Of a stretch of 39,088 nt of DNA, positions 6,375 through 39,088 are shown one piece after another. The DNA is from a virus. The notes under the pieces are model-generated. The model was not told the origin of the DNA, did not search any database, and was given only the letters and a program-made list of their open reading frames with translations. The stretch covers positions 1-39,088 of IMG/VR virus record IMGVR_UViG_3300027559_000001, one strand, 5' to 3'. Both the position numbers and the translations under genes were made by a program. Every line of letters begins with the position of its first letter. The stretch's first letter is position 1.

Positions 6375-8950
6375 TGGGATTGCCTTCCCTTCAGCCAAAC
6401 TTAATTGCCGGTGAGTTAAGAGGTTTAACGAACAATGTTAAGCCAATGATGCTTCCCGATCAAGCATTTCCAGTCATGGAAAATGCCTATTGCTTTCGTG
6501 AAAGAATCGTAAAAAGGGAAGGTATTCAGCTAATTGGAAGATTACGGAGAATTCAAACAGCCGTCTCGGCTGGAAATTATACGACAATCAATGGTACCAA
6601 TACTTTAAATCTTTTTACGGGGCTTGGGGTTTTATCAACAGAGCCGGATGCTGAATTACAGCCAGGAACAAGTGGAGATCCCATTACAATTGTTTTTGGA
6701 GCTCCAATCAGCCAAACCTTGACCGATACTTTAGGTACGGGCCAATTGACCATCACAGGTTCAGGTCCTATTCAATTTGCCTTCATAAATTATGCGACAG
6801 GGATTGTTAACATTCGGGCAAATGCTGCTCTAGGTCCAGCTACAGTAACTTTAACAGCCTCCTATTATCCCACACTTCCAACAATGGGGATTATTGATCG
6901 TGAAACGGTTTTAGCCAATGACGAACAGACCGTTTATTTCGACACAAAATATGCCTATATCGTGAATGGTGGACAATTTCAGGAATGGATACCTGGCACA
7001 ACTTGGTCAGGAGATAATTTCAATCTTTTCTGGTCTACAAATTATCGTGGAGTCACTCCTGATATCCGGTTATTGTTCGTTACCAATTTCGTTAATAATG
7101 CCACAAATCCAATTCGCTATACGGACGGTAATACCTGGACCAATTTTGTGCCCGCGGTTGCAGGAAATCCAGCCACTTTCTTCATGACTCAAGCAAAGAT
7201 ATTAATTCCTTATTATGGCCGTCTTGTTGCTTTAAATGTATGGGAAGCACCAGCAGACATGTCTGGCAACCCAAATTATGGATCTGCGGTAAATTATACA
7301 GCTCGGTGCAGATTTTCACAGATTGGAGATCCCACAGATCAAACTAACGGTTGGAGATCTGATGTGTTTGGAAGAGGGGGTCTTGCTGATGCGCCCACTT
7401 CAGAAGCTATCGTATCTGCTGCCTTCTTCAAGAATACCCTTATTGTCCAATTCGAACGATCCACATGGCAATTGCGTTATATGGGTGAATATGGAGCACC
7501 GTTCCTATGGGAAAGGATTTCATCAGATTTCGGATCAGATTCAACCTTCAGTAACGTTTTATTCAATGATGGCGTACTTACTATCGGTGATAAGGCGATA
7601 ACGTCAGGAACGGCCGTTTCTGTTGATCGTATCGATCTTGATATTCCCGATCAGGTCTTTGATTTCAAAAATACACGAGTCGATCGCGTTTGTGGTGTTA
7701 GAAACTTCGAAAAAGAACTTGTTTTCTGGTGCTATTGCGATTCAGAGTCTTTGGATGTAGGACAAATCTTTCCAAATAAGGTCCTCGTTTATAATTACCG
7801 AAACAACACTTGGGCAATTTTTGATGATAGAGTGACTTGTTTTGGAACCACTCAAAAAATTGAGGGAATTACTTGGGATAGTTTGACTACTTTCTGGGAA
7901 GACATGGATGTCACTTGGGATTCTGTCACAACCCAAAGTTTATTCCCTGCCGTTTCAGCCGGTAATTCGCAAGGATATATCTATTTTTTTGCGAGTAAAA
8001 CCGCCGATGATCCGTCCTATTCAATTCAAGGCATCAATCTTTCCACTTATCCGATTGTCTTGGATATTCCTAATCATACCCTTTCAACAGATGACATCAT
8101 CCAAATTACTGGGATGCAGTTCATTGATAGCGTAACAGGAACGCCTCAAGTTTCATCTATAAACGATGATCTCTATATCGTCACATATGTTGATAATTCG
8201 CATGTCTCTCTTGAGAGATGGAACGGGACTAACTATGTGGGTAATTTCCCCTTTACCTTTACCCCAGGCACTTCAAATCCAATCGTATATGTGGGTGGGG
8301 GGCAAATAACCTTTTTCCCTGTCCTAAACGTTCAAACGAAGGATTTTAATCCTTATCAATCGGGGGGAAAACAAGTCAAACTTGCTTATATCGATTTCTT
8401 GACTGATACAACCCCTTCAGGGGTTATGACAATTCAAATTCTTCTTGATTCCTCTAATGCTGTAATTGGTAATCTCCTTACAGGCAATCAAGAGGTTGAA
8501 ACATCAACAACCCCTAGCGGCTATATTACGGGAGCTACACAAGCAAACCCTTGCGTTATAACCGCTCCAAATCACGGATTAAGGACAGGGGATCAAATCC
8601 AAATAAGCAATGTACTTGGTCTTACGCAGATCAATAATATTAGTGGACCTTTCCCATCCTGGGTTGTGACCTATATTAATGCAAACACGTTTGCCATCAA
8701 TACCGACACAAGTTCTGCTCCAATTGCATATATTTCCGGCGGTCAATGGTCCCAGCAAAACTTTAAGTTCTTCCTTCCTGCATCTCAATATGCTTGGCAT
8801 CGTTTTTATGCCACTTGCGTTGGGCAATATATTCGCATCATCATAACTTATGATGATTTGCTTATGAATGACTTAAATACCCATGAGCAATCATGGACTT
8901 TGAATGCTATAAACTTCTGGACACGTCCGGGAGGCAATTTAATCTTCTAA
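6374..8950 (+). CDS. Tail tubular protein B-like (nozzle) with two C-terminal FCCH-like modules
   Basis: 858 aa. Modules lie near nt 8048-8220 (YPIVLDIPNHTLSTDDIIQITGMQF...) and 8540-8720 (ANPCVITAPNHGLRTGDQIQISNVLGLTQINN...). Confidence 0.5.
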   Translation: MGLPSLQPNLIAGELRGLTNNVKPMMLPDQAFPVMENAYCFRERIVKREGIQLIGRLRRIQTAVSAGNYTTINGTNTLNLFTGLGVLSTEPDAELQPGTSGDPITIVFGAPISQTLTDTLGTGQLTITGSGPIQFAFINYATGIVNIRANAALGPATVTLTASYYPTLPTMGIIDRETVLANDEQTVYFDTKYAYIVNGGQFQEWIPGTTWSGDNFNLFWSTNYRGVTPDIRLLFVTNFVNNATNPIRYTDGNTWTNFVPAVAGNPATFFMTQAKILIPYYGRLVALNVWEAPADMSGNPNYGSAVNYTARCRFSQIGDPTDQTNGWRSDVFGRGGLADAPTSEAIVSAAFFKNTLIVQFERSTWQLRYMGEYGAPFLWERISSDFGSDSTFSNVLFNDGVLTIGDKAITSGTAVSVDRIDLDIPDQVFDFKNTRVDRVCGVRNFEKELVFWCYCDSESLDVGQIFPNKVLVYNYRNNTWAIFDDRVTCFGTTQKIEGITWDSLTTFWEDMDVTWDSVTTQSLFPAVSAGNSQGYIYFFASKTADDPSYSIQGINLSTYPIVLDIPNHTLSTDDIIQITGMQFIDSVTGTPQVSSINDDLYIVTYVDNSHVSLERWNGTNYVGNFPFTFTPGTSNPIVYVGGGQITFFPVLNVQTKDFNPYQSGGKQVKLAYIDFLTDTTPSGVMTIQILLDSSNAVIGNLLTGNQEVETSTTPSGYITGATQANPCVITAPNHGLRTGDQIQISNVLGLTQINNISGPFPSWVVTYINANTFAINTDTSSAPIAYISGGQWSQQNFKFFLPASQYAWHRFYATCVGQYIRIIITYDDLLMNDLNTHEQSWTLNAINFWTRPGGNLIF

Positions 8951-10087: not shown

Positions 10088-11656
10088 ATGGTTCAGATTC
10101 ATTATTTACCAAAGCAGCAGCGTGATATTGGCATTGAAGCCCTTGGAAGCTCTATTGGAGAGGGCTTAGGGAAATTCACCACAACTTATTTTGCCAATAA
10201 AGCATTAGATAAAGTTTTGAACGACCAAAGTCTGAAAGATAAAGCCTTATCTGAAAAGATGGATAGGCTTGAAAGTGCTACGAGACCTTATGGTGAGTAT
10301 GGTCAAAACATTCTAGCTCGTCGATTGGGAATTGAACAACAACGACATGGCGAGCAAATGTTTAAAAAAGCAAGAGATGTGGCGAATAAGAAAGGTTCAA
10401 CTCCCGCAGATATTCTTTTTTCTCTTATGGAAGCCGGCCAGGGCGTTCCTGGATCGGAAAGATATATAGCCCCTGCCTATGAAGCATTAACACGTCAAAT
10501 GCAAATTAAAGGTGGACAGGATTATAACCCTTATGGCGAAGATGGCTCCCAAACTGCTCCAAGACAAAGGGAAGAAGATTTTGTAGCTAATACAGCACCA
10601 CAAAGAAATGCTCTTCCAAACTTTAGTTCAACGGGTACTCCTGAACCAAACACCCAATTCTTTCCAACAAACAATTTAGGAAATCAAAAACCTGGAAATA
10701 TCCCTCAACCAACCACAGGAGGTGTGGTAAGACCCATTCCTACGCCAGAACAGCAATTAAGAGAAGCTCAGGATCTTTCTAGGAAGTTTAACATCCCACT
10801 TAATGAATCAATTCCTCTTGTCCGCGATAGAGTTCAAACAATTAAAGACTTCAATAATCAAGTCCAATCAGATACACAGAACCGCGTGACTTCTCAGCAG
10901 CGCTATGGCCAATTAGCTGAAGAAAGGCTTCAAAAATATTTACCTGAAGCAACCGATGAGCAACGGGCGTTCTTTAAAAAGAAAGGTGAAGAAGCTTCTG
11001 AGAATTTTAAAAGCGAAGCTGACATAGATCGTTACCTTTCAGGAGAAGTTCGTAAGTTTAAGAATAATTTAACTAATATTCGTGATTCGATTCCGCCCCA
11101 AAGAGCCTATAATATGCCTCAGCAAACTATTTTAGGGACAAATACAGCCTTTGAAAAGAGAAAAGCTGATATTCGCCAAAAGTTAAAACCTCTTTTGGAA
11201 GCTGGTCTCTATGATACTGCTAGAAATACTTTGAGCGAAGTAGGTTACTATCCTGAAGAAAGAGAAAGCATCATTGGGGATTTGGGTGAAGGTTCCAAGA
11301 AAGCCATCGCTCAAATGCCAACATTCCCTAAAAAATATAAGCCAAGCGCGACAGGGACTTTTTCAGTTGAGATCCCGTCACTTGGGGAAAATGAAAAAGG
11401 TATCATAAAAAATACACTTAAACAAGCACTTCAAAATGATCCTTCAGCTAATACAATTTTGCTTAGACGTGCTTTTGAGGAAAAAAATGTTGATTGGAGA
11501 ACTTTTAAAGATGTCTTCAATGAAGTGGTAGATGGAGAAGAAATTCCAGGATTTAAGTTGAGTGATGATCAATTTAATCAGCTCAATACTTTGGAGAATC
11601 CTCCTTTAAATGGACTTGAAAAGATTCTACATGGCCTTCACCTTATAGGTAGATAA
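10088..11656 (+). CDS. Internal virion / ejection protein (putative)
   Basis: 522 aa, low-complexity, Pro/Gln-rich centre. I saw no lytic transglycosylase motif. Confidence 0.45.
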   Translation: MVQIHYLPKQQRDIGIEALGSSIGEGLGKFTTTYFANKALDKVLNDQSLKDKALSEKMDRLESATRPYGEYGQNILARRLGIEQQRHGEQMFKKARDVANKKGSTPADILFSLMEAGQGVPGSERYIAPAYEALTRQMQIKGGQDYNPYGEDGSQTAPRQREEDFVANTAPQRNALPNFSSTGTPEPNTQFFPTNNLGNQKPGNIPQPTTGGVVRPIPTPEQQLREAQDLSRKFNIPLNESIPLVRDRVQTIKDFNNQVQSDTQNRVTSQQRYGQLAEERLQKYLPEATDEQRAFFKKKGEEASENFKSEADIDRYLSGEVRKFKNNLTNIRDSIPPQRAYNMPQQTILGTNTAFEKRKADIRQKLKPLLEAGLYDTARNTLSEVGYYPEERESIIGDLGEGSKKAIAQMPTFPKKYKPSATGTFSVEIPSLGENEKGIIKNTLKQALQNDPSANTILLRRAFEEKNVDWRTFKDVFNEVVDGEEIPGFKLSDDQFNQLNTLENPPLNGLEKILHGLHLIGR

Positions 11657-12933
11657 TGGTTGCACAAATTGTGAGCGCGCTTTCAACAGGTTTTTCTAGT
11701 CGATCTATCGTTAATCAACTTGTTAAACAATTTCCTCAGTATGCTAAACAAATTCGTGCTGCCGAAACCGCTGGATTTACAGCCGATGCAATCTTAAGCC
11801 ATTTAATGGGATCAAAGAATGCTTCAACGCAAGGTGCTCTTACAGAATATGAACAGACAAAGAATAGAGATACAACACGTAAAAATCAAATTACTTCCAG
11901 CCTTGTCGGGACATTAGGAACTACGGCAGCAATTGGAGCAGGAGTTTACGCACTTTCTAGGAGAAATAATACTCCACAAGCGAATAGTTTGGGACCTTCT
12001 GCTCCTATTCCTCCAAATCCTATGAACTTATCCAAAAGAGGCACACCAAATATTCCTGGGGGCGCTTTACCTGCTTTAGAAAATAATTCTGGTCTTCCAG
12101 TTCCCATTACCCCTACTTCTAACATTGCTTTGGCTCCAGCACCCACGAGACAAAAGAATGTAGAACTTGTTAAAAATCTAAAAGAAGATACTCGACTACA
12201 AAATCTCTTCAGTGGTGGTTTGACTCCTGAAGAAGTTTCTGAGGCTCTCCCAAAAATTATCTCTAAGGAAAATTATAATGCATTTAAAAAGGCTCCTGGC
12301 GGCGTTCAGCAAGTAGTTAAAGATTATTCTGATCATCTTCAAGAAAACCCTAAGGAAAAAGACATAAGTCTTGGTGAAAAGATAGCAAGAGCCACAATTC
12401 CTCAAAAAGGTGAAATAATACCCACGCCTTCCGGAAATGCAACAATCAAAGGTGTGGATGACCAAGGAGTCATTGCCGAGATCAATGGCAAGGTTGAAAG
12501 GTTAACTCCGGATGAGGTTGAACCACCCTCAGAAGATGCTATAGAGACAGTTCAAAGATTATTGAAAATCCCCGAATCAGAACGCAGCTCTATCGTCAGT
12601 CTTTTTACCTATGATCCCGACGAAGATAAAATGTATATTCAGTTTCACAATGGTGAAACATATAAATATCTTGGGGTAGATCCTGAAAAAGTTTTTAAAG
12701 TAGCTGAAAAGCACGGCGTTCCGGTATCAAAAGGCAAAAGCATTTTCGGTGAATGGTCCCCAGAGGATAAGAATTCCCTTGGGGCAACATTAATAAAAGA
12801 AATTATAAATGATCCCAAATACCGAAAGCCCAAGAAAGGTGAGCCACCCAATCCAAACTATGTAAAACTGGAAACAATGTATGACTACTGGAAAAACCTC
12901 AGAAAACGACCAAAACCTAAGAAAGGACTTTAA
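11656..12933 (+). CDS. Internal virion / ejection protein with a central TM helix and a C-terminal KTSC-like domain
   Basis: TAATG coupling. TM helix LVGTLGTTAAIGAGVYAL, then a Pro-rich linker. The C-terminus SSIVSLFTYDPDEDKMYIQFHNGETYKYLGVDPEKVFKVAE fits the KTSC pattern. It ends in a basic tail RKRPKPKKGL. Confidence 0.55.
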   Translation: MVAQIVSALSTGFSSRSIVNQLVKQFPQYAKQIRAAETAGFTADAILSHLMGSKNASTQGALTEYEQTKNRDTTRKNQITSSLVGTLGTTAAIGAGVYALSRRNNTPQANSLGPSAPIPPNPMNLSKRGTPNIPGGALPALENNSGLPVPITPTSNIALAPAPTRQKNVELVKNLKEDTRLQNLFSGGLTPEEVSEALPKIISKENYNAFKKAPGGVQQVVKDYSDHLQENPKEKDISLGEKIARATIPQKGEIIPTPSGNATIKGVDDQGVIAEINGKVERLTPDEVEPPSEDAIETVQRLLKIPESERSSIVSLFTYDPDEDKMYIQFHNGETYKYLGVDPEKVFKVAEKHGVPVSKGKSIFGEWSPEDKNSLGATLIKEIINDPKYRKPKKGEPPNPNYVKLETMYDYWKNLRKRPKPKKGL

Positions 12934-20270: not shown

Positions 20271-20576
20271 CTAATCTGGTTTCTTTTTGTTATCTTTCTT
20301 TTTCTGACTTTCTCTCAAAGAGCCATTGGCCATAGCGACAACGCCTTTGACTTCAAGGATCATGTGGTTAAGTCGATTGAAATTGTCATGGTATTTTTGT
20401 TGGGCTTCAATCAATTTGTTAATATTGAGGGTTTTTAATCCTTGATTAATTTCTAATAAACGGTCTGTATTTCGTTCAGACTCCATATCTAATCTTCTAT
20501 GCATATCATCAATATGTTCAAAAATTAGTTCTAATTTTTCCAGCATTTCAGCATGACGCTGTTTCATTCCAAACAT
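20271..20576 (-). CDS. Coiled-coil protein (101 aa) with a basic tail
   Basis: Clean minus ORF. The plus-strand ORFs 20099..20335 and 20232..20438 look like antisense shadows. Confidence 0.65.
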   Translation of the reverse strand: MFGMKQRHAEMLEKLELIFEHIDDMHRRLDMESERNTDRLLEINQGLKTLNINKLIEAQQKYHDNFNRLNHMILEVKGVVAMANGSLRESQKKKDNKKKPD

Positions 20577-20578
20577 TA

Positions 20579-20977
20579 TTATTTCTCTCTATTGTAATAA
20601 ATTTTGTTTTTATCGATATCACTGATAAAATTTTGTAATTTAAAATCGATCGTTCTTAAAAGTTCAGTCATGTCCTTTACTTGGTTTCTCATATCAGAGA
20701 TAATTGAGGGAATATTATTTATCATAATTTTTACATTTTCTTCGTTCACAGGCATTTCATCGCGAAAGTGAAGATTGTTTTCATGTAATAGTCTTTGCAT
20801 TTCTCTCAAAGAAAATTTTCCAACATTTCTCCAGCTCATAATTTCTCTGGTTGTAAATGTCGCAAGCGTCCCTAACGTATGAATATTGTTAAATTTTAAA
20901 ATATTTTCTGTGCGCACACTCATTTCAAACCAATGCAATGGACGTACTTCTGGAGGAAGATTGCATTCCTCATCCAT
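20579..20977 (-). CDS. RNA polymerase alpha-subunit C-terminal-domain-like (helix-hairpin-helix) protein with a coiled-coil tail
   Basis: LHWFEMSVRTENILKFNNIHTLGTLATFTTREIMSWRNVGKFSLREMQRLLHENNL aligns by eye to E. coli RpoA CTD ([53 protein letters not shown]). ATGA-coupled to GroES. Confidence 0.7.
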   Translation of the reverse strand: MDEECNLPPEVRPLHWFEMSVRTENILKFNNIHTLGTLATFTTREIMSWRNVGKFSLREMQRLLHENNLHFRDEMPVNEENVKIMINNIPSIISDMRNQVKDMTELLRTIDFKLQNFISDIDKNKIYYNREK

Positions 20978-21243
20978 TATTCCCTCACAATTGTTAATAT
21001 GTCATCTGGCTTGACTACGTAATAATCTCGATCGCCATAACTCAGCTCTACATATGAGTATTTACTGATGATGACAGCATTACCTGTTTGGAGCTTCTCT
21101 GGCGCATCAGGACCTTTAGCCACTACCCTGGCATGGATAAACTCTTTTTTCGCCTTGGTGACCACAATAAGCCCTCCTATACTGCGAGTTTCAGGCTCGA
21201 ATGGCTCAACGATTATATTTTTGCCTAATGGCTCAAGATTCAT
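20977..21243 (-). CDS. groES: Co-chaperonin GroES-like
   Basis: 88 aa. MNLEPLGKNIIVEPFEPETRSIGGLIV...ARVVAKGP...GNAVIISKYSYVELSYGDRDYYVVKPDDILTIV follows the Cpn10 pattern along its whole length. Confidence 0.8.
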   Translation of the reverse strand: MNLEPLGKNIIVEPFEPETRSIGGLIVVTKAKKEFIHARVVAKGPDAPEKLQTGNAVIISKYSYVELSYGDRDYYVVKPDDILTIVRE

Positions 21244-21247
21244 CTTT

Positions 21248-21907
21248 TTACTCCAGGTTTATTTCGATTGGAAAGTTTACAGGTTTATAGGCTCGGTTAA
21301 CTTGCGAGGCATTGACGAATTGCATATGAGGCATTTCATAGTCGCCACACAAACCAAATCCTTCATGGATGTGTCCAAATACATGCAACTTTAAGTTTTT
21401 GAGCTGTTTAATGCGTACCAGTAATGAAGTTGATCCCGAGTGAAATAGAGTGCCGTCATAGAAGTTTGGAATACCATCAAGGATACTAAAAGGTGGAGAA
21501 TGAGTAATGAGAACATTAGTATCATCAGGTATGAGAGCCCACTTTTCAATTAACTCTTCCTCTGTTTTCAAGGTAAATGCTTTGCACTTTGGGTTCATCC
21601 CAGGAAATTCTTTTGTCCAAGGTGATCCCCAGATTTTAAATCCATTGAATGAACATTCTTTATCTTCAAGGTAAGTTCCAAATTGTAATTTTAATCTTTT
21701 TTCTAGCAAAACATTGTCATGATTGCCGCCAATTATGATTTTAGCTGCATAGTTTTGTTCGTTAAGCCAATAATCAAAAAGCGCCATTTCATTTTCCAGA
21801 TCTCTAGAAGTCAAATCCCCGGCAACGATCAATAGATCGCCCCCAGGAAGCTTTGGATACTTACCATGTAAATCTGCTGTACATGTGATTTTCATGTGAA
21901 TCGCCAT
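21248..21907 (-). CDS. Calcineurin-like metallophosphoesterase
   Basis: Motifs DLHG, GDL, GNHD, THSPP and GHIHEG. The likely true start is MKITCTADLHG at 21895, which is ATGA-coupled to the upstream micro-ORF. Confidence 0.8.
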   Translation of the reverse strand: MAIHMKITCTADLHGKYPKLPGGDLLIVAGDLTSRDLENEMALFDYWLNEQNYAAKIIIGGNHDNVLLEKRLKLQFGTYLEDKECSFNGFKIWGSPWTKEFPGMNPKCKAFTLKTEEELIEKWALIPDDTNVLITHSPPFSILDGIPNFYDGTLFHSGSTSLLVRIKQLKNLKLHVFGHIHEGFGLCGDYEMPHMQFVNASQVNRAYKPVNFPIEINLE

Positions 21908-21987: not shown

Positions 21988-22223
21988 TATGCACACCATC
22001 TAGAAAAGTCTATACTAGAACTTTGTAAAGCTTTTGCAGCACAATCTTCAGGATTTTCGCACCTTCCTTGCGCTATAGCCTCTAAAACTGCACAATGTAG
22101 ACTGTCTTCATAAGAATGAGCTCTTTCATCATCATAAGATATACTCTCTAGATAAAGCAACGCATCAAGGATAACTGAAGGAGTGATTTTATCAGGCCAC
22201 ATTGGTGGCTTCTTATGTTCCAT
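21987..22223 (-). CDS. Hypothetical protein (78 aa)
   Basis: GAGG lies 8 nt before the ATG at 22223 (MEHKKPPMW); the ORF opens at 22238. TAATG overlap with the exonuclease stop. Confidence 0.6.
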   Translation of the reverse strand: MEHKKPPMWPDKITPSVILDALLYLESISYDDERAHSYEDSLHCAVLEAIAQGRCENPEDCAAKALQSSSIDFSRWCA

Positions 22224-23131
22224 TATGTAAACCTCCACTTCGTGATAGGCTCTTTTCGATAAGCATCCAAGTTTATCCCTATCAACTCAGGAATCGAGTT
22301 ATAATTCACTCTTCCTTTTTCGACGATCTTGCACACTCTTATGCCCCCCCCAATTGTACTTTGGCCTCCAGTCATTAGGAGTAAATCATTCTTCACAGCA
22401 TCTTTCTCTTTTTCTAGGTCCTTTATGGCATCATCGAGTTGTTTATATCTCTCTGCCTTTGTCTTCCAGTCTTCAGATTCATTTTGCACAAAATCTTTGT
22501 TATCCAAAGATGGTGGGATAAAGTCTTTAACATGTTTCCAAAACTGATGAAGTCTTTCCATCATCGAGGTGACATAACCCATGTTCCTTACAATTGGAAC
22601 AATCACGGTGTCTCCTAAGTCTTTTAATTCACCGCTTTCTAGGATAGCTCCATGATTGGAAATGTAGAGCATGGTATCTAGGCCCATAACTTCCATGATG
22701 CCATTGACTTGACCCACATATTTGTCAGGAATCATCCCAAATTTAGCAAGCTCATGGTCTAACTTATTTGCCGTTTTTATCTCAATAACTGTTTTACCAT
22801 CTGAAGATATTCCGTCTAAGCTTGCGCCAAAATAGGCAATTTTGGGATGCTGATAAACGCAAGGTTGAAATTCTGTTTCAAGTTTGCGTGATACATAGTT
22901 CCTTACGTGGGGTTCTAGAACAACCCCACGTTTCATTGCCTCACTTTGCTGTTGCGTCTCACCTAAGCCTACCATCTCTTCCCATAGCTGATAACGGGTT
23001 TTGTAAGGACTTTCCCCCATGATAACGGGTATTTTAGAGGCTGTGAGTGTATTCAGGCGCCACTTGTGCCATTGTGGGGAGCCTTGTAAAACATCAATCT
23101 TTATTGGTTCATGCCGCATTGATAACCTCAC
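22223..23131 (-). CDS. YqaJ-type (lambda Exo-like, PD-(D/E)XK) recombination exonuclease
   Basis: GSPQWHKWRLNTLTASKIPVIMGESPYKTRYQLWEEMVG is the YqaJ N-terminal signature. It is paired with RecT. An alternative start lies at 23119. Confidence 0.8.
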   Translation of the reverse strand: MRLSMRHEPIKIDVLQGSPQWHKWRLNTLTASKIPVIMGESPYKTRYQLWEEMVGLGETQQQSEAMKRGVVLEPHVRNYVSRKLETEFQPCVYQHPKIAYFGASLDGISSDGKTVIEIKTANKLDHELAKFGMIPDKYVGQVNGIMEVMGLDTMLYISNHGAILESGELKDLGDTVIVPIVRNMGYVTSMMERLHQFWKHVKDFIPPSLDNKDFVQNESEDWKTKAERYKQLDDAIKDLEKEKDAVKNDLLLMTGGQSTIGGGIRVCKIVEKGRVNYNSIPELIGINLDAYRKEPITKWRFT

Positions 23132-23915
23132 CTGTTTTTAAATCCATTTCTAGGTTTGCTTTTTCTACTTCTTTGAGCTTTTCCTGAATACGGTTCAAAA
23201 GAATCTCATAGTCTTCACTTGTGAGATTTTTGAATCCCTTCTTTTTATCTACAACATTGTTGGTCACCATTTTGCGAAAGTTTTCAGGGCATTTGCTAAG
23301 TTCTAACGCAAGAAATTCATGCATCTCAGCAGTTACCCCTGGCACTTCTATGGTTTCCACATCATCGCTATAATGCTGGGCCTCAGCTTCACTTGATGGA
23401 AGATCCCCGCAAATATCTGGAAATGCTTTCTTGATAGAGGCCATCTCAGCGCATTTGATTAACTGACTTTTAGCACGTTCTCTCCAGGTTGCATTCGCCT
23501 CTCTTTGATCACCTTTACCCTTCATTTTAACGCATTCATCGTACCAGGCTTCACCGAAGACATCATGCCACGTTCCGTCTACGGTTCTTTTCTTAATCCA
23601 AACTTTTGCATAGACGGGCATTCCTCGATCATCGAAAGAAAGTTCAGTAGCTCTATCGCTTGGTGCATAATTGCCTGTCCTATCAGCAAGAGCTCTATAC
23701 CCTCCAATCCCTAAGATTGTCTGCATCACATTCCTGCCTGCACCACTATCCCAAATTGGGATCGCATGCACCTGCTTCATGAAAGGATCTAAGTTAAATT
23801 TCTTGCACAAATGGCTGAAAATGAAATACTCGGCATCAGAACAGCCTTTCGCCACGCTAGTCTTAACGGCCGCTTCCACCTCTTTGGTCCATTCGATCTT
23901 CATTAATTGACTCAT
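23109..23915 (-). CDS. recT: RecT/Bet-family single-strand annealing protein
   Basis: FNLDPFMKQVHAIP...ILGIGGYRALADRTGNY...QLIKCAEMASIKKAFPD fits RecT/Bet motifs as I recall them. It lies directly upstream of the exonuclease. Confidence 0.7.
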   Translation of the reverse strand: MSQLMKIEWTKEVEAAVKTSVAKGCSDAEYFIFSHLCKKFNLDPFMKQVHAIPIWDSGAGRNVMQTILGIGGYRALADRTGNYAPSDRATELSFDDRGMPVYAKVWIKKRTVDGTWHDVFGEAWYDECVKMKGKGDQREANATWRERAKSQLIKCAEMASIKKAFPDICGDLPSSEAEAQHYSDDVETIEVPGVTAEMHEFLALELSKCPENFRKMVTNNVVDKKKGFKNLTSEDYEILLNRIQEKLKEVEKANLEMDLKTGEVINAA

Positions 23916-24037
23916 GGTTTCTTCCTTTCGGGTTTGATTAAATTTTCTTCTATATTCTTCTCTAGATTTTCTAGGAACTCTTTCTCATCTTGTTTCAGCG
24001 ATTCGAAGAGAGTTTGCTTGTCAAATTCTTTTTCCAT
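23912..24037 (-). CDS. Acidic micro-protein (41 aa), first gene of the leftward operon
   Basis: MEKEFDKQTLFESLKQDEKEFLENLEKNIEENLIKPERKKP. ATGA-coupled to recT. The longer ORF up to 24337 runs through the divergent promoter region and the cro-like gene. Confidence 0.45.
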   Translation of the reverse strand: MEKEFDKQTLFESLKQDEKEFLENLEKNIEENLIKPERKKP

Positions 24038-24049
24038 CAGGGTTTCCTC

Positions 24050-24107
24050 TTGACTATAAAATATGCGTATGATAATAATATTACTAAAATAAGCGTATTT
24101 TACGCAA
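24050..24107. promoter_or_regulatory. Back-to-back divergent sigma70-like promoters with two operator-like direct repeats
   Basis: Rightward promoter: TTGACT (24050-55), N17, TAATAA (24073-78). Leftward promoter: TTGCGT (rc of 24102-07), N18, TAATAT (rc of 24078-83). The repeat TAAAATA(T/A)GCGTAT at 24057-70 and 24085-98 sits in each spacer. Confidence 0.5.
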
Positions 24108-24125
24108 CAGAAAAAGGAGAAAAAG

Positions 24126-24353
24126 ATGCAAATGAGAGAATATTTATCGAAAAAGGGTATATCGGCAGCTAAATTTTGCCGCGCATGTGACTTAGATTTA
24201 GCGACATTCAATAAAATCTTGAAAGGAGGAAATACAAGTTTTAGGATTGCTCTCAAAATCGTGAAATTTACCGATGATGAGGTGTCTCTTAACGAACTGG
24301 CTGGTCTTCCTAGAGTTCTTCCAAAAGGGTTTTTCAAATCTAACGAAAAATAA
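24126..24353 (+). CDS. Cro/XRE-like helix-turn-helix regulator
   Basis: GGAG RBS. REYLSKKGISAAKFCRACDLDLATFNKILKG is a typical HTH. It is the first gene of the rightward replication operon. Confidence 0.65.
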   Translation: MQMREYLSKKGISAAKFCRACDLDLATFNKILKGGNTSFRIALKIVKFTDDEVSLNELAGLPRVLPKGFFKSNEK

Positions 24354-28016: not shown

Positions 28017-28282
28017 TTCTTAGACCATTTTAGTTTTGGTTCGCTAAGATAAACATTCCTAAATTGTCTACGTCTCATCTCTTGATATGCACATTGAAGT
28101 CTATATTCTTCAACTTGCTGCTTGCGCTTTTCAGCTTCTTCCCTTTCCTTTTTCATCATATCCTCGAACCATTCTTTATTCTCTTGATATAGCTTGTAGA
28201 GTGAATCTTCGCGATTGTCTTCAAGCAGTTGGTAAGGATTGCTTACTGGTTCAGGAGATGCTCTTCGGGGAGGGCTAGCCAT
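28013..28282 (-). CDS. Charged coiled-coil protein (89 aa)
   Basis: Clean ORF, ATGA-coupled downstream. The plus-strand ORF 28087..28278 is an antisense shadow. Confidence 0.6.
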   Translation of the reverse strand: MASPPRRASPEPVSNPYQLLEDNREDSLYKLYQENKEWFEDMMKKEREEAEKRKQQVEEYRLQCAYQEMRRRQFRNVYLSEPKLKWSKK

Positions 28283-28556
28283 TATAAATTCCTATGATCA
28301 TGTCTTTCGTTTCTTTATCGAGTTTGTCTAAAATTTCATAGCCAGAAGGAAGGCATTCGGGCAAAGGAAACCATGCTTGAACTTCATATGTCTTACCAAA
28401 AGGATATTTGCGAGGCTTTCCAGTTCTTCCGAAAGGAATGTATCGCGTTATCTCATCACGCCAGACGAATCCTTCTTTATATCTCCACATGATCAAAACT
28501 TTTTGACCCTCTTGAGGAAGTCTATCCGAAATCATTATCCATTGGGGATTATCCAT
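28275..28556 (-). CDS. DUF551-like protein (divergent)
   Basis: MDNPQWIMISDRLPQEGQKVLI...QAWFPLPE. The ORF opens at 28604, but the DUF551 domain normally starts at the N-terminus, and 28556 limits the overlap to 8 nt. Confidence 0.6.
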   Translation of the reverse strand: MDNPQWIMISDRLPQEGQKVLIMWRYKEGFVWRDEITRYIPFGRTGKPRKYPFGKTYEVQAWFPLPECLPSGYEILDKLDKETKDMIIGIYNG

Positions 28557-28776
28557 GTTTATCCATGAAATCTTGAATAAATATACATTCTTTATCGGTT
28601 TCATGACATTTCTCTAATTCTTGGAGGAGATGTTCCTTACCATATATCTCATGAAGAACTTCAAGCCTTAAAGTTGATAAAACACCTAGGATGAAAATAC
28701 ATTCTTCACCCTCAAGAATTGGCTTTATTTTTGATTTTAATTCTCTTATTTTTAAAAGAACTTCATTAGCTTCCAT
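28549..28776 (-). CDS. Hypothetical protein (start uncertain; ORF opens at 28818 with TTG)
   Basis: A start at MEANEVLLKIRELK (28776) gives an 11-nt overlap with the upstream gene. An ATG at 28803 is also possible. Confidence 0.5.
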   Translation of the reverse strand: MEANEVLLKIRELKSKIKPILEGEECIFILGVLSTLRLEVLHEIYGKEHLLQELEKCHETDKECIFIQDFMDKHG

Positions 28777-29514: not shown

Positions 29515-29988
29515 ATGATTACTTGGAAACTAGAAACTAGAAAACTGAAAGAGTTGCGCGAACATCCTCGCAATCCTCGCCAACTCAAAAAAGATCAATC
29601 AGATCATTTAATGCGCTCATTATCAACCTTCGGCATTGTTGAGAAGCCCATTATCAACTTAGATAATATGATCATTGGCGGCCATCAGCGTCTTAAGATT
29701 CTTAAGAAAATGAACTTAAAAGAAATTGAATGCTGGGTTCCTGATCGAAAGCTTGAGGATCGAGAAGTTGATGAGCTTTGCATTCGTCTTAATAAAAACA
29801 CAGGCGATTGGGATTGGGATGCTTTAGGTAATCTTTGGAATCCCCCCGATTTGATTGATTGGGGCTTTCATCCTGATGAATTGCTCGAGGGTATTACAGA
29901 TAACGAAGCTGCATTAACTGAACCTGAAGATTGCGGCTCATGCGAGCTATGTGGTCAAAAGCTAAAGGGTAAAAAGAAAGATGGCTAG
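29515..29988 (+). CDS. ParB-like nuclease domain protein
   Basis: LKELREHPRNPRQL...IVEKPIINLDNMIIGGHQRLKIL is the ParB/Srx N-domain pattern. C-terminal CGSCELCG. Confidence 0.7.
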   Translation: MITWKLETRKLKELREHPRNPRQLKKDQSDHLMRSLSTFGIVEKPIINLDNMIIGGHQRLKILKKMNLKEIECWVPDRKLEDREVDELCIRLNKNTGDWDWDALGNLWNPPDLIDWGFHPDELLEGITDNEAALTEPEDCGSCELCGQKLKGKKKDG

Positions 29989-38989: not shown

Positions 38990-39088
38990 CAATTAAATAT
39001 TTAAATTGATATCTGTTGGGGTCGACATTTGTCGGCCCTTTCCATTTAAGGAGATATTATGATTATAGCACAGATGATTATTTGGATT
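38990..39088. repeat. Terminal redundancy copy B (identical to nt 1-99)
   Basis: Exact 99-nt match to the window start. Confidence 0.95.

Follow-up and report, generated by a model that had tools for sequence, protein, structure and literature searches.

An RNA polymerase alpha-CTD joined to a predicted coiled coil in a small protein encoded in the early operon of a soil tailed phage

The window analyzed here (the whole of IMG/VR record IMGVR_UViG_3300027559_000001, positions 1 to 39,088, 39,088 nucleotides) is the complete genome, about 39 kb in length, of a tailed phage found in soil metagenomes. Its first 99 nucleotides are identical to positions 38990-39088, which indicates that this 99-nt end repeat is an assembly overlap and that the genome is circular or circularly permuted, with a length of about 38,989 bp. 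The genome encodes a large terminase, a portal, a major head protein (capsid), a replication initiator and a DnaC-like loader, and since the large terminase is about 42% identical to the terminases of Klebsiella, Pseudomonas and Vibrio siphophages, the host is probably a proteobacterium. The gene under study lies on the minus strand at 20579-20977 and encodes a protein of 132 amino acids; the identical protein was found on seven contigs of about 39 kb, two of which were retrieved (one from an ENA soil-metagenome assembly and one from a JGI metagenome).

The gene belongs to a leftward early operon, which runs from RecT (23109-23915, minus strand) and a YqaJ-type exonuclease (22223-23131, minus), both recognized by Pfam and PHROG, through an 83-aa ORF to a calcineurin-like metallophosphoesterase of 219 aa (21248-21907, minus; Pfam PF00149 and PHROG), a Cpn10/GroES homologue of 88 aa (20977-21243, minus), the 132-aa ORF, a helical protein of 101 aa with the N-terminus MFGMKQRH (20271-20576, minus) and three small ORFs. 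The genes of the packed leftward run are spaced by -1 to +4 nt; the 101-aa ORF starts 2 nt past the stop codon of the 132-aa ORF, and the metallophosphoesterase gene heads the tight run that continues with the Cpn10 gene and the gene studied here. That a metallophosphoesterase adjoins the Cpn10 gene within one early operon, as the first-pass annotation of this DNA had proposed, is confirmed by the ORF itself and by its Pfam Metallophos and PHROG matches.

Several observations on the surrounding genome can be recorded here in their own right. The metallophosphoesterase matches, over its full length, the PADLOC candidate defence family PDC-S10 (E=2.5e-60, 201 bits), a member of which is thus located in a phage early operon; homologues were found in two of the contigs described below (44% identity in L010 and 66% in L064). 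A Cro/CI-type HTH gene of 75 aa (24126-24353, plus strand; Pfam HTH_26, 21.7 bits, just below the cut-off of 22) overlaps a longer 141-aa ORF with a TTG start (23912-24337, minus), and of these two the HTH gene is probably the real one, marking a divergent early control region. An ORF of 157 aa (29515-29988, plus), located two genes before that of the large terminase, gave a weak ParB_N match (E=0.0058) and may encode a ParB-like nuclease or a small-terminase partner. Finally, a KTSC domain lies within a 425-aa protein of the structural region (11656-12933, plus), and DUF551 proteins are encoded in a minus-strand block at 27.8-28.6 kb (28275-28604, minus, and neighbours); DUF551 genes also flank relatives of the 132-aa protein in the contigs L010 and L058, in the latter on the downstream side.

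Residues ~8-72 of the 132-aa protein (20762-20956, minus) form a true RNA polymerase alpha-CTD, as opposed to a generic helix-hairpin-helix (HhH) domain. Pfam places PF03118 (RNA_pol_A_CTD) on residues 17-66 (E=1.9e-10; 40.8 bits, the gathering cut-off being 23.8), and of the helix-hairpin-helix clan it is the sole family to match the protein at E<=1. A phmmer search of all PDB sequences matched 42 chains, all of them RpoA, over a query span of ~7-77; the best match was Francisella alpha-1 (9e-8, query residues 7-71), and the PDB phmmer alignment gave the offset of +243 that is used below to convert residue numbers to those of E. coli RpoA. The homology begins at the RP motif with which the domain opens and runs through to the GLxL motif that closes it. 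While an AlphaFold2 model from the single sequence was unusable (pLDDT 50.7), a model from an alignment of 14 family sequences reached pLDDT 92.3 and consists of four short helices at residues 21-66 and a single long helix at 79-131. In a Foldseek search with this model against the PDB, the best 50 matches were all RpoA alpha-CTDs (50/50, ~32-36% identity), and they include DNA-bound structures (9zum, 3n4m and 1lb2); alpha-CTDs in complex with AT-rich DNA, with CAP-DNA, and with sigma region 4 plus UP DNA are all represented. Where the matched chain is an isolated alpha-CTD, the TM-score to target is 0.8-0.89, and the best of these superpositions reach an rmsd as low as 1.0-1.5 A. Hence, the likeness to the RpoA alpha-CTD that had been read from the sequence by eye is borne out by the Pfam score, by the PDB sequence matches and by the fold, and the generic HhH fold unrelated to the alpha-CTD, named beforehand as the outcome that would speak against it, was not what the Foldseek search returned.

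The domains of the alpha N-terminus (PF01193 and PF01000) are absent from the 132 aa in Pfam, and the protein is therefore not RpoA or a polymerase subunit; consistently with this, the NCBIfam rpoA models match it over their CTD part only. Neither PHROG profiles (E<=0.01) nor the PADLOC anti-phage defence profiles matched the protein. As a side observation, NCBIfam NF005841 (PRK07758, an equivalog named only as a 95-aa 'hypothetical protein') gave a weak match over its C-terminal 54 positions (22 bits vs a cut-off of 115), which suggests that a cellular family of stand-alone alpha-CTDs exists among the NCBI models.

In place of an alpha-NTD, the protein carries a C-terminal tail, as had been anticipated: the long helix of the pLDDT 92 model spans residues 79-131 (20585-20743, minus) and is separated by a linker of ~12 residues from the alpha-CTD. 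In the alignment of the 14 homologues, hydrophobic columns fall at positions 86, 89, 93, 96, 100, 103, 107, 110, 114, 117 and 121, so that the 3/4 spacing of a/d positions is unbroken from 86 to 121 and covers about five heptads, at least four having been asked for before a coiled coil was called. We therefore predict that the tail is a coiled-coil oligomerization stalk. It is also family-specific, as a tail-only HMM recovers the proteins of L004 and L010. Further hydrophobic positions in the distal tail (112, 109 and 118/119) could point to a bundle formed with another partner instead of a homodimer.

The alpha-CTD of bacterial polymerase contacts the minor groove of A/T-rich UP elements through R265, N268, G296, K298 and S299. 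Four of these residues are kept in the window protein (R22=R265, N25=N268, G53=G296 and S56=S299, in E. coli numbering), and the position of K298 is taken by Phe (F55), a replacement that may weaken binding of the UP type. Across 14 family members (the window protein and 13 representatives, placed on E. coli positions by the +243 offset), the R265 equivalent is Arg in 14/14; N268 and G296 are each kept in 13/14, the K297 equivalent is K or R in 13/14, and that of S299 is S or T in 12/14. The K298 equivalent is Lys in 9/14 and non-basic in the other five, among them the window protein. Four of these residues are also retained in the seven other phage alpha-CTD proteins that were compared (N268 7/7, G296 7/7, S299 as S/T 7/7, R265 6/7), the one exception at R265 being Finch gp200, which has Gln. 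The remaining surfaces are less constant: the sigma-contacting 261 determinant is partly kept in the window protein (H15, W16 and E18, with D258 changed to His and D259 to Trp), its E261 equivalent is acidic in 8/14 members, and the positions of both the 261 and the CAP-contacting 287 determinants vary across the family. Since these vary while the R265, N268, G296 and S299 positions are all but invariant, the DNA-binding face is, in this alignment, the part of the protein under the clearest constraint. We also searched the window for candidate target sites. UP-element-like patterns were found 30 times against 24.5 +/- 6 expected, i.e., without enrichment, a count that describes the phage genome and is silent on the host genome; the promoter and terminator scan of the window was not above chance, and neither a repeated operator-like site nor a promoter enrichment was found there.

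The gene immediately upstream was annotated from the outset as a full-length Cpn10/GroES gene, and this reading stands: the ORF at 20977-21243 (minus) matches PF00166 over profile positions 1-92/93 (E=6.5e-14, 52.2 bits vs 21.1), and its PHROG match is co-chaperonin GroES (PHROG 3188), while the NCBIfam GroES models match it below their cut-offs. Set beside phage co-chaperonins (T4 gp31, RB49 CocO and the PHROG 3188 GroES homologues), this 88-aa neighbour keeps the mobile-loop segment, as its GGLIV aligns with the GG(V/L)(L/V) of solved Cpn10s in PDB alignments; its roof-loop region is ~9 residues shorter than that of cellular GroES. The two genes had been described as sharing an ATGA junction, which is incorrect: the sequence reads TAATG (20975-20979, minus), with the Cpn10 stop codon TAA at 20979-20977 and the start codon ATG at 20977-20975 overlapping by one base, and an SD-like GAGGGA is read just 5' of the start. 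By this arrangement the two genes are, in the window phage, co-transcribed and probably translationally coupled. The same TAATG overlap joins a Cpn10 gene (Pfam 31.4 bits) to a family member in L010, where the alpha-CTD proteins are 36% and the Cpn10s 17% identical to those of the window and the surrounding genes are rearranged; such a recurrent pair could suggest a cassette.

The pairing, however, does not hold across relatives, and of the coupling to GroES that had been proposed, the stop/start overlap is real and repeated in L010 but is not conserved elsewhere. In the closest relative found (L064, 364-1684), in which the metallophosphoesterase and Cpn10 are 66% and 69% identical to those of the window, the gene order is Metallophos, Cpn10, a TGATG junction and then an ORF that begins MMFGMKKRH and is homologous to the 101-aa ORF of the window (20271-20576); the alpha-CTD gene is absent from between them. 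When the window and L064 are compared base by base, the difference amounts to an exact ORF-sized presence/absence between the TAATG and TGATG junctions, and because of this precision at stop and start codons the alpha-CTD gene can be read as a discrete accessory cassette. Conversely, in L004, L058, L062 and L063 the gene upstream of the family member is unrelated, and the family member has no Cpn10 gene beside it. The two genes thus stand side by side in the window and L010 only, rather than as an obligate two-gene module, and since L064 lacks the alpha-CTD gene and these four contigs have unrelated genes in the upstream position, the GroES link is, on the loci compared, facultative, with neither gene requiring the other as a neighbour.

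Judging from homologous sequences, the 132-aa protein is not an orphan but belongs to a rare phage family sharing its two-part architecture. When 1.84 billion cluster representatives were searched exhaustively with HMMER, 813 matched at E<=1e-3, and among these at least 13 further proteins of 114-142 aa align end to end with the window protein at 25-35% identity. Thirteen representatives, clustered at 50% identity, were taken into the alignment (A1) that defines the alpha-CTD plus coiled-coil family; its members have in common the alpha-CTD, an L(K/R)D(E/D) linker, an IPxxL motif and the heptad helix, and an HMM built from A1 also recovers the ORFs of L004 and L010. All of the family contexts long enough to assess (the window, L004, L010, L063 and L058) are phage-like. 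L004, a contig of an NCBI metagenome assembly, encodes a P22-type portal, a capsid protein and a terminase 42% identical to that of the window, and L010, an IMG/VR contig, has RecT, the exonuclease, the metallophosphoesterase, DnaC and further genes in common with the window (27-47% identity), though in another order. Shorter phage alpha-CTD proteins that lack the tail were found in L005, L007 and L009, and all of these keep R265, N268, G296 and S299. One of these contigs, the IMG/VR phage contig L007, carries two alpha-CTD ORFs, one of 141 aa (7800-8225, plus), which directly follows YqaJ-RecT, and one of 207 aa (10349-10972, minus).

Other searches added little to this family. A word-indexed protein search returned only the window protein itself when it was the query and five proteins when the query was A1; A1 was too diverse for locus scans. 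Searching IMG/VR with the window protein gave no match. Profile scans of genome contigs with alignments A2 and A3 found no relative, and therefore no prophage or host could be assigned by this route. Most hits of a metagenome scan were true rpoA genes or proteins with two CTDs, and the scan added no full-length members to the family; the plasmid collection yielded rpoA genes only. Among cultured phages, blastn with 7.9 kb found no match, tblastn found Finch and a few faecal contigs only, and tblastn with the L009 protein found mostly bacterial rpoA contamination, plus Ruegeria phage V16. The cellular part of the HMMER search brought up alpha-CTD architectures that appear uncharacterized (P0002, P0003, P0007, P0013, P0022 and P0012); among these, a protein of 1031 aa carries 10 alpha-CTD repeats in tandem, a widespread family of ~440 aa combines TPR repeats with two alpha-CTDs, and in one RpoA the CTD is duplicated.

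That phages encode alpha-CTD proteins is no novelty in itself, since databases already list such proteins under automatic names. Small viral proteins with an alpha-CTD fold are named 'RNA polymerase, alpha subunit, C-terminal' in BFVD; they include entries of 111-135 aa from uncultured Caudovirales (A0A6J5NZM6, A0A6J5MNY7, A0A6J5M7I6, A0A6J5QDR9 and A0A6J5L490), which we liken to the window protein by the alpha-CTD fold alone, and entries from cultured phages, i.e., Rhodococcus phage Finch gp200 and a Mycobacterium phage Mithril protein. Finch gp200, which was the protein behind the tblastn match, differs from the window protein in its length of 240 aa, in the Gln at the R265 position and in lacking a coiled-coil tail of the window type. 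No function is described for the BFVD viral alpha-CTD proteins, and our literature search found no published work on phage-encoded alpha-CTD homologues. As far as we searched, the architecture of an alpha-CTD followed by a coiled coil, the family-wide conservation of its DNA-binding face and its cassette-like behaviour have not been described before. Compared with the alpha-CTD of RpoA (PF03118), the domain has the same fold and the conserved R265, N268, G296 and S299 but is phage-encoded, lacks the alpha-NTD and the interdomain linker, is followed by a coiled coil and has Phe for K298; without an alpha-NTD, it cannot assemble into polymerase. Cellular non-RpoA alpha-CTD proteins resemble it in that the module stands free of RpoA, and many of them carry it more than once, but there multiplicity is achieved by tandem repeats in one chain, accompanied by other partner domains, whereas in the window protein it would be achieved by the coiled coil.

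We propose, tentatively and at somewhat less than an even chance, that the protein is an oligomeric binder of the AT-rich minor groove that acts as an alpha-CTD mimic and competes with the host polymerase. The coiled coil would join two or more alpha-CTDs on flexible linkers, and the resulting assembly would copy the two tethered CTDs of the alpha dimer without the NTD that is needed for entry into polymerase. An isolated CTD binds weakly as a monomer, and because of this it is the oligomer that should bind AT-rich, promoter-upstream DNA with avidity. Such an oligomer might occupy UP-element-like DNA, and possibly the partners of the alpha-CTD, while delivering no polymerase; early in infection it would compete with the alpha-CTDs of the host polymerase at promoter-upstream sites, and transcription would be diverted from host promoters that depend on UP elements or activators. 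Cpn10 would then serve a separate co-chaperonin function from the shared transcript, as a non-obligatory partner. The position of the gene in the early-left operon with RecT and the exonuclease speaks for this model, and lambdoid phages keep host-modulating accessory genes in that operon. Also in its favour are the specific identity of the domain, the conserved DNA-binding residues, the heptads kept along the family-specific tail, the phage-like contexts and the ORF-sized presence/absence relative to L064. Against it stand the Phe at the K298 position, the loss of most of the acidic 261 patch, the absence of an enrichment in UP-like patterns, the chance-level promoter scan and the additional hydrophobic positions of the distal tail.

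The same features bear on other readings of the protein. It is possible, though in our opinion unlikely, that it is a transcription activator or regulator of the phage itself, whose alpha-CTDs sit on AT-rich DNA close to phage middle or late promoters and draw in or stabilize the host polymerase by way of the surfaces that an alpha-CTD normally applies to sigma region 4, so that it would work as a positive factor and not as a competitor. Conservation of the DNA-binding residues, both in the family and in the other phage alpha-CTD proteins, would suit such a role, as would the E261 equivalent, kept in the window protein and acidic in about half of the family, and the fact that no Q, Ogr or sigma late regulator was recognizable among the window ORFs scanned. 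However, His and Trp replace the acidic residues at 258 and 259, the window offers neither a repeated operator-like site nor promoter enrichment, and the absence of the gene from L064, the closest relative, would be surprising for an essential regulator. If, instead, DNA binding were irrelevant and the protein merely soaked up host proteins that engage the alpha-CTD (e.g., class I activators, NusA AR2 or Spx-like proteins) or enzymes that modify it, the overall alpha-CTD surface seen by Foldseek and the avidity that predicted oligomerization would confer could both be accounted for. Nevertheless, the best-conserved residues are those that contact DNA, and the 261 and 287 determinants vary freely; the pattern of conservation thus favours DNA binding over a pure protein decoy, which we hold to be improbable.

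The genomic contexts allow two further readings to be weighed. A role in DNA metabolism, with the HhH domain tethering DNA for the RecT/YqaJ recombination or the replication machinery and having no part in transcription, would agree with the place of the window gene within the RecT/YqaJ operon, with RusA ~1 kb upstream of the family member in L063, and with two tail-less alpha-CTD genes, one in L007 that immediately follows YqaJ-RecT and one in L009 that is flanked by YqaJ and an AAA_24 ATPase gene. Sequence and fold, on the other hand, are specifically those of an alpha-CTD and not of HhH domains of the Rad51-N, RuvA or ComEA type; in L010 a distance of 5.5 kb and a change of strand separate the gene from those for RecT and the exonuclease, and in L004 and L005 the alpha-CTD gene lies beside the packaging module (in L005, near the terminase). 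Moreover, adjacency to RecT/YqaJ is weak evidence, because early operons mix recombination and takeover genes, and we consider that this role, too, has a low probability. A small terminase, which likewise combines an N-terminal DNA-binding domain with a coiled coil, was also considered in view of the terminase genes near the L004 and L005 members, and was rejected, as in the window a distance of 9 kb separates the gene, located in the early operon, from TerL, whose immediate upstream neighbours are other ORFs. Finally, the protein might be a functional partner of the phage Cpn10, e.g., an adaptor or a client. The Cpn10-TAATG-alpha-CTD order persists in L010 in spite of low identities and rearranged flanks, but with a Cpn10 in L064 that has no alpha-CTD gene, and alpha-CTD genes in L004, L058, L062 and L063 that have no adjacent Cpn10, this reading seems very improbable.

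Returning to the alpha-CTD mimic, its target would be a prominent one, as on bacterial polymerase the alpha-CTD is the hub for UP elements and most class I activators. T4 Alt and ModA ADP-ribosylate R265 of alpha, and gp67 of the S. aureus phage G1 also hits alpha-CTD/UP-element function. To our knowledge, phages that interfere with this hub do so by modifying, cleaving or blocking the host protein. A further factor of this kind is Rac of a Pseudomonas phage, which is linked to alpha cleavage (PMC7552054, PMC3694059 and PMC2988021). The proposed outcome is the same for Alt/ModA, gp67, Rac and the window protein, namely the loss of alpha-CTD-dependent use of host promoters early in infection; the former, however, act on the host protein and share no homology with the window protein, for which mimicry and competition are inferred. 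In its boldest form, which we regard as doubtful, the proposal would make this the first example of a phage weapon copied from a domain of the host's own RNA polymerase, with an oligomerized free alpha-CTD occupying UP elements and/or docking partners and thereby shutting down rRNA-type and activator-dependent host promoters, and the relatives would form a 'mini-alpha' takeover family.

If the competitor model is true, a coiled coil that gathers several copies of a phage alpha-CTD would represent a different principle, that of domain mimicry and competition, and would offer a separable, ready-made tool to probe or switch off UP- and activator-dependent transcription. The family is small and its members are compact (~120-140 aa) and easily tested, and a function established here could shed light on the equally unexplained cellular non-RpoA alpha-CTD proteins.
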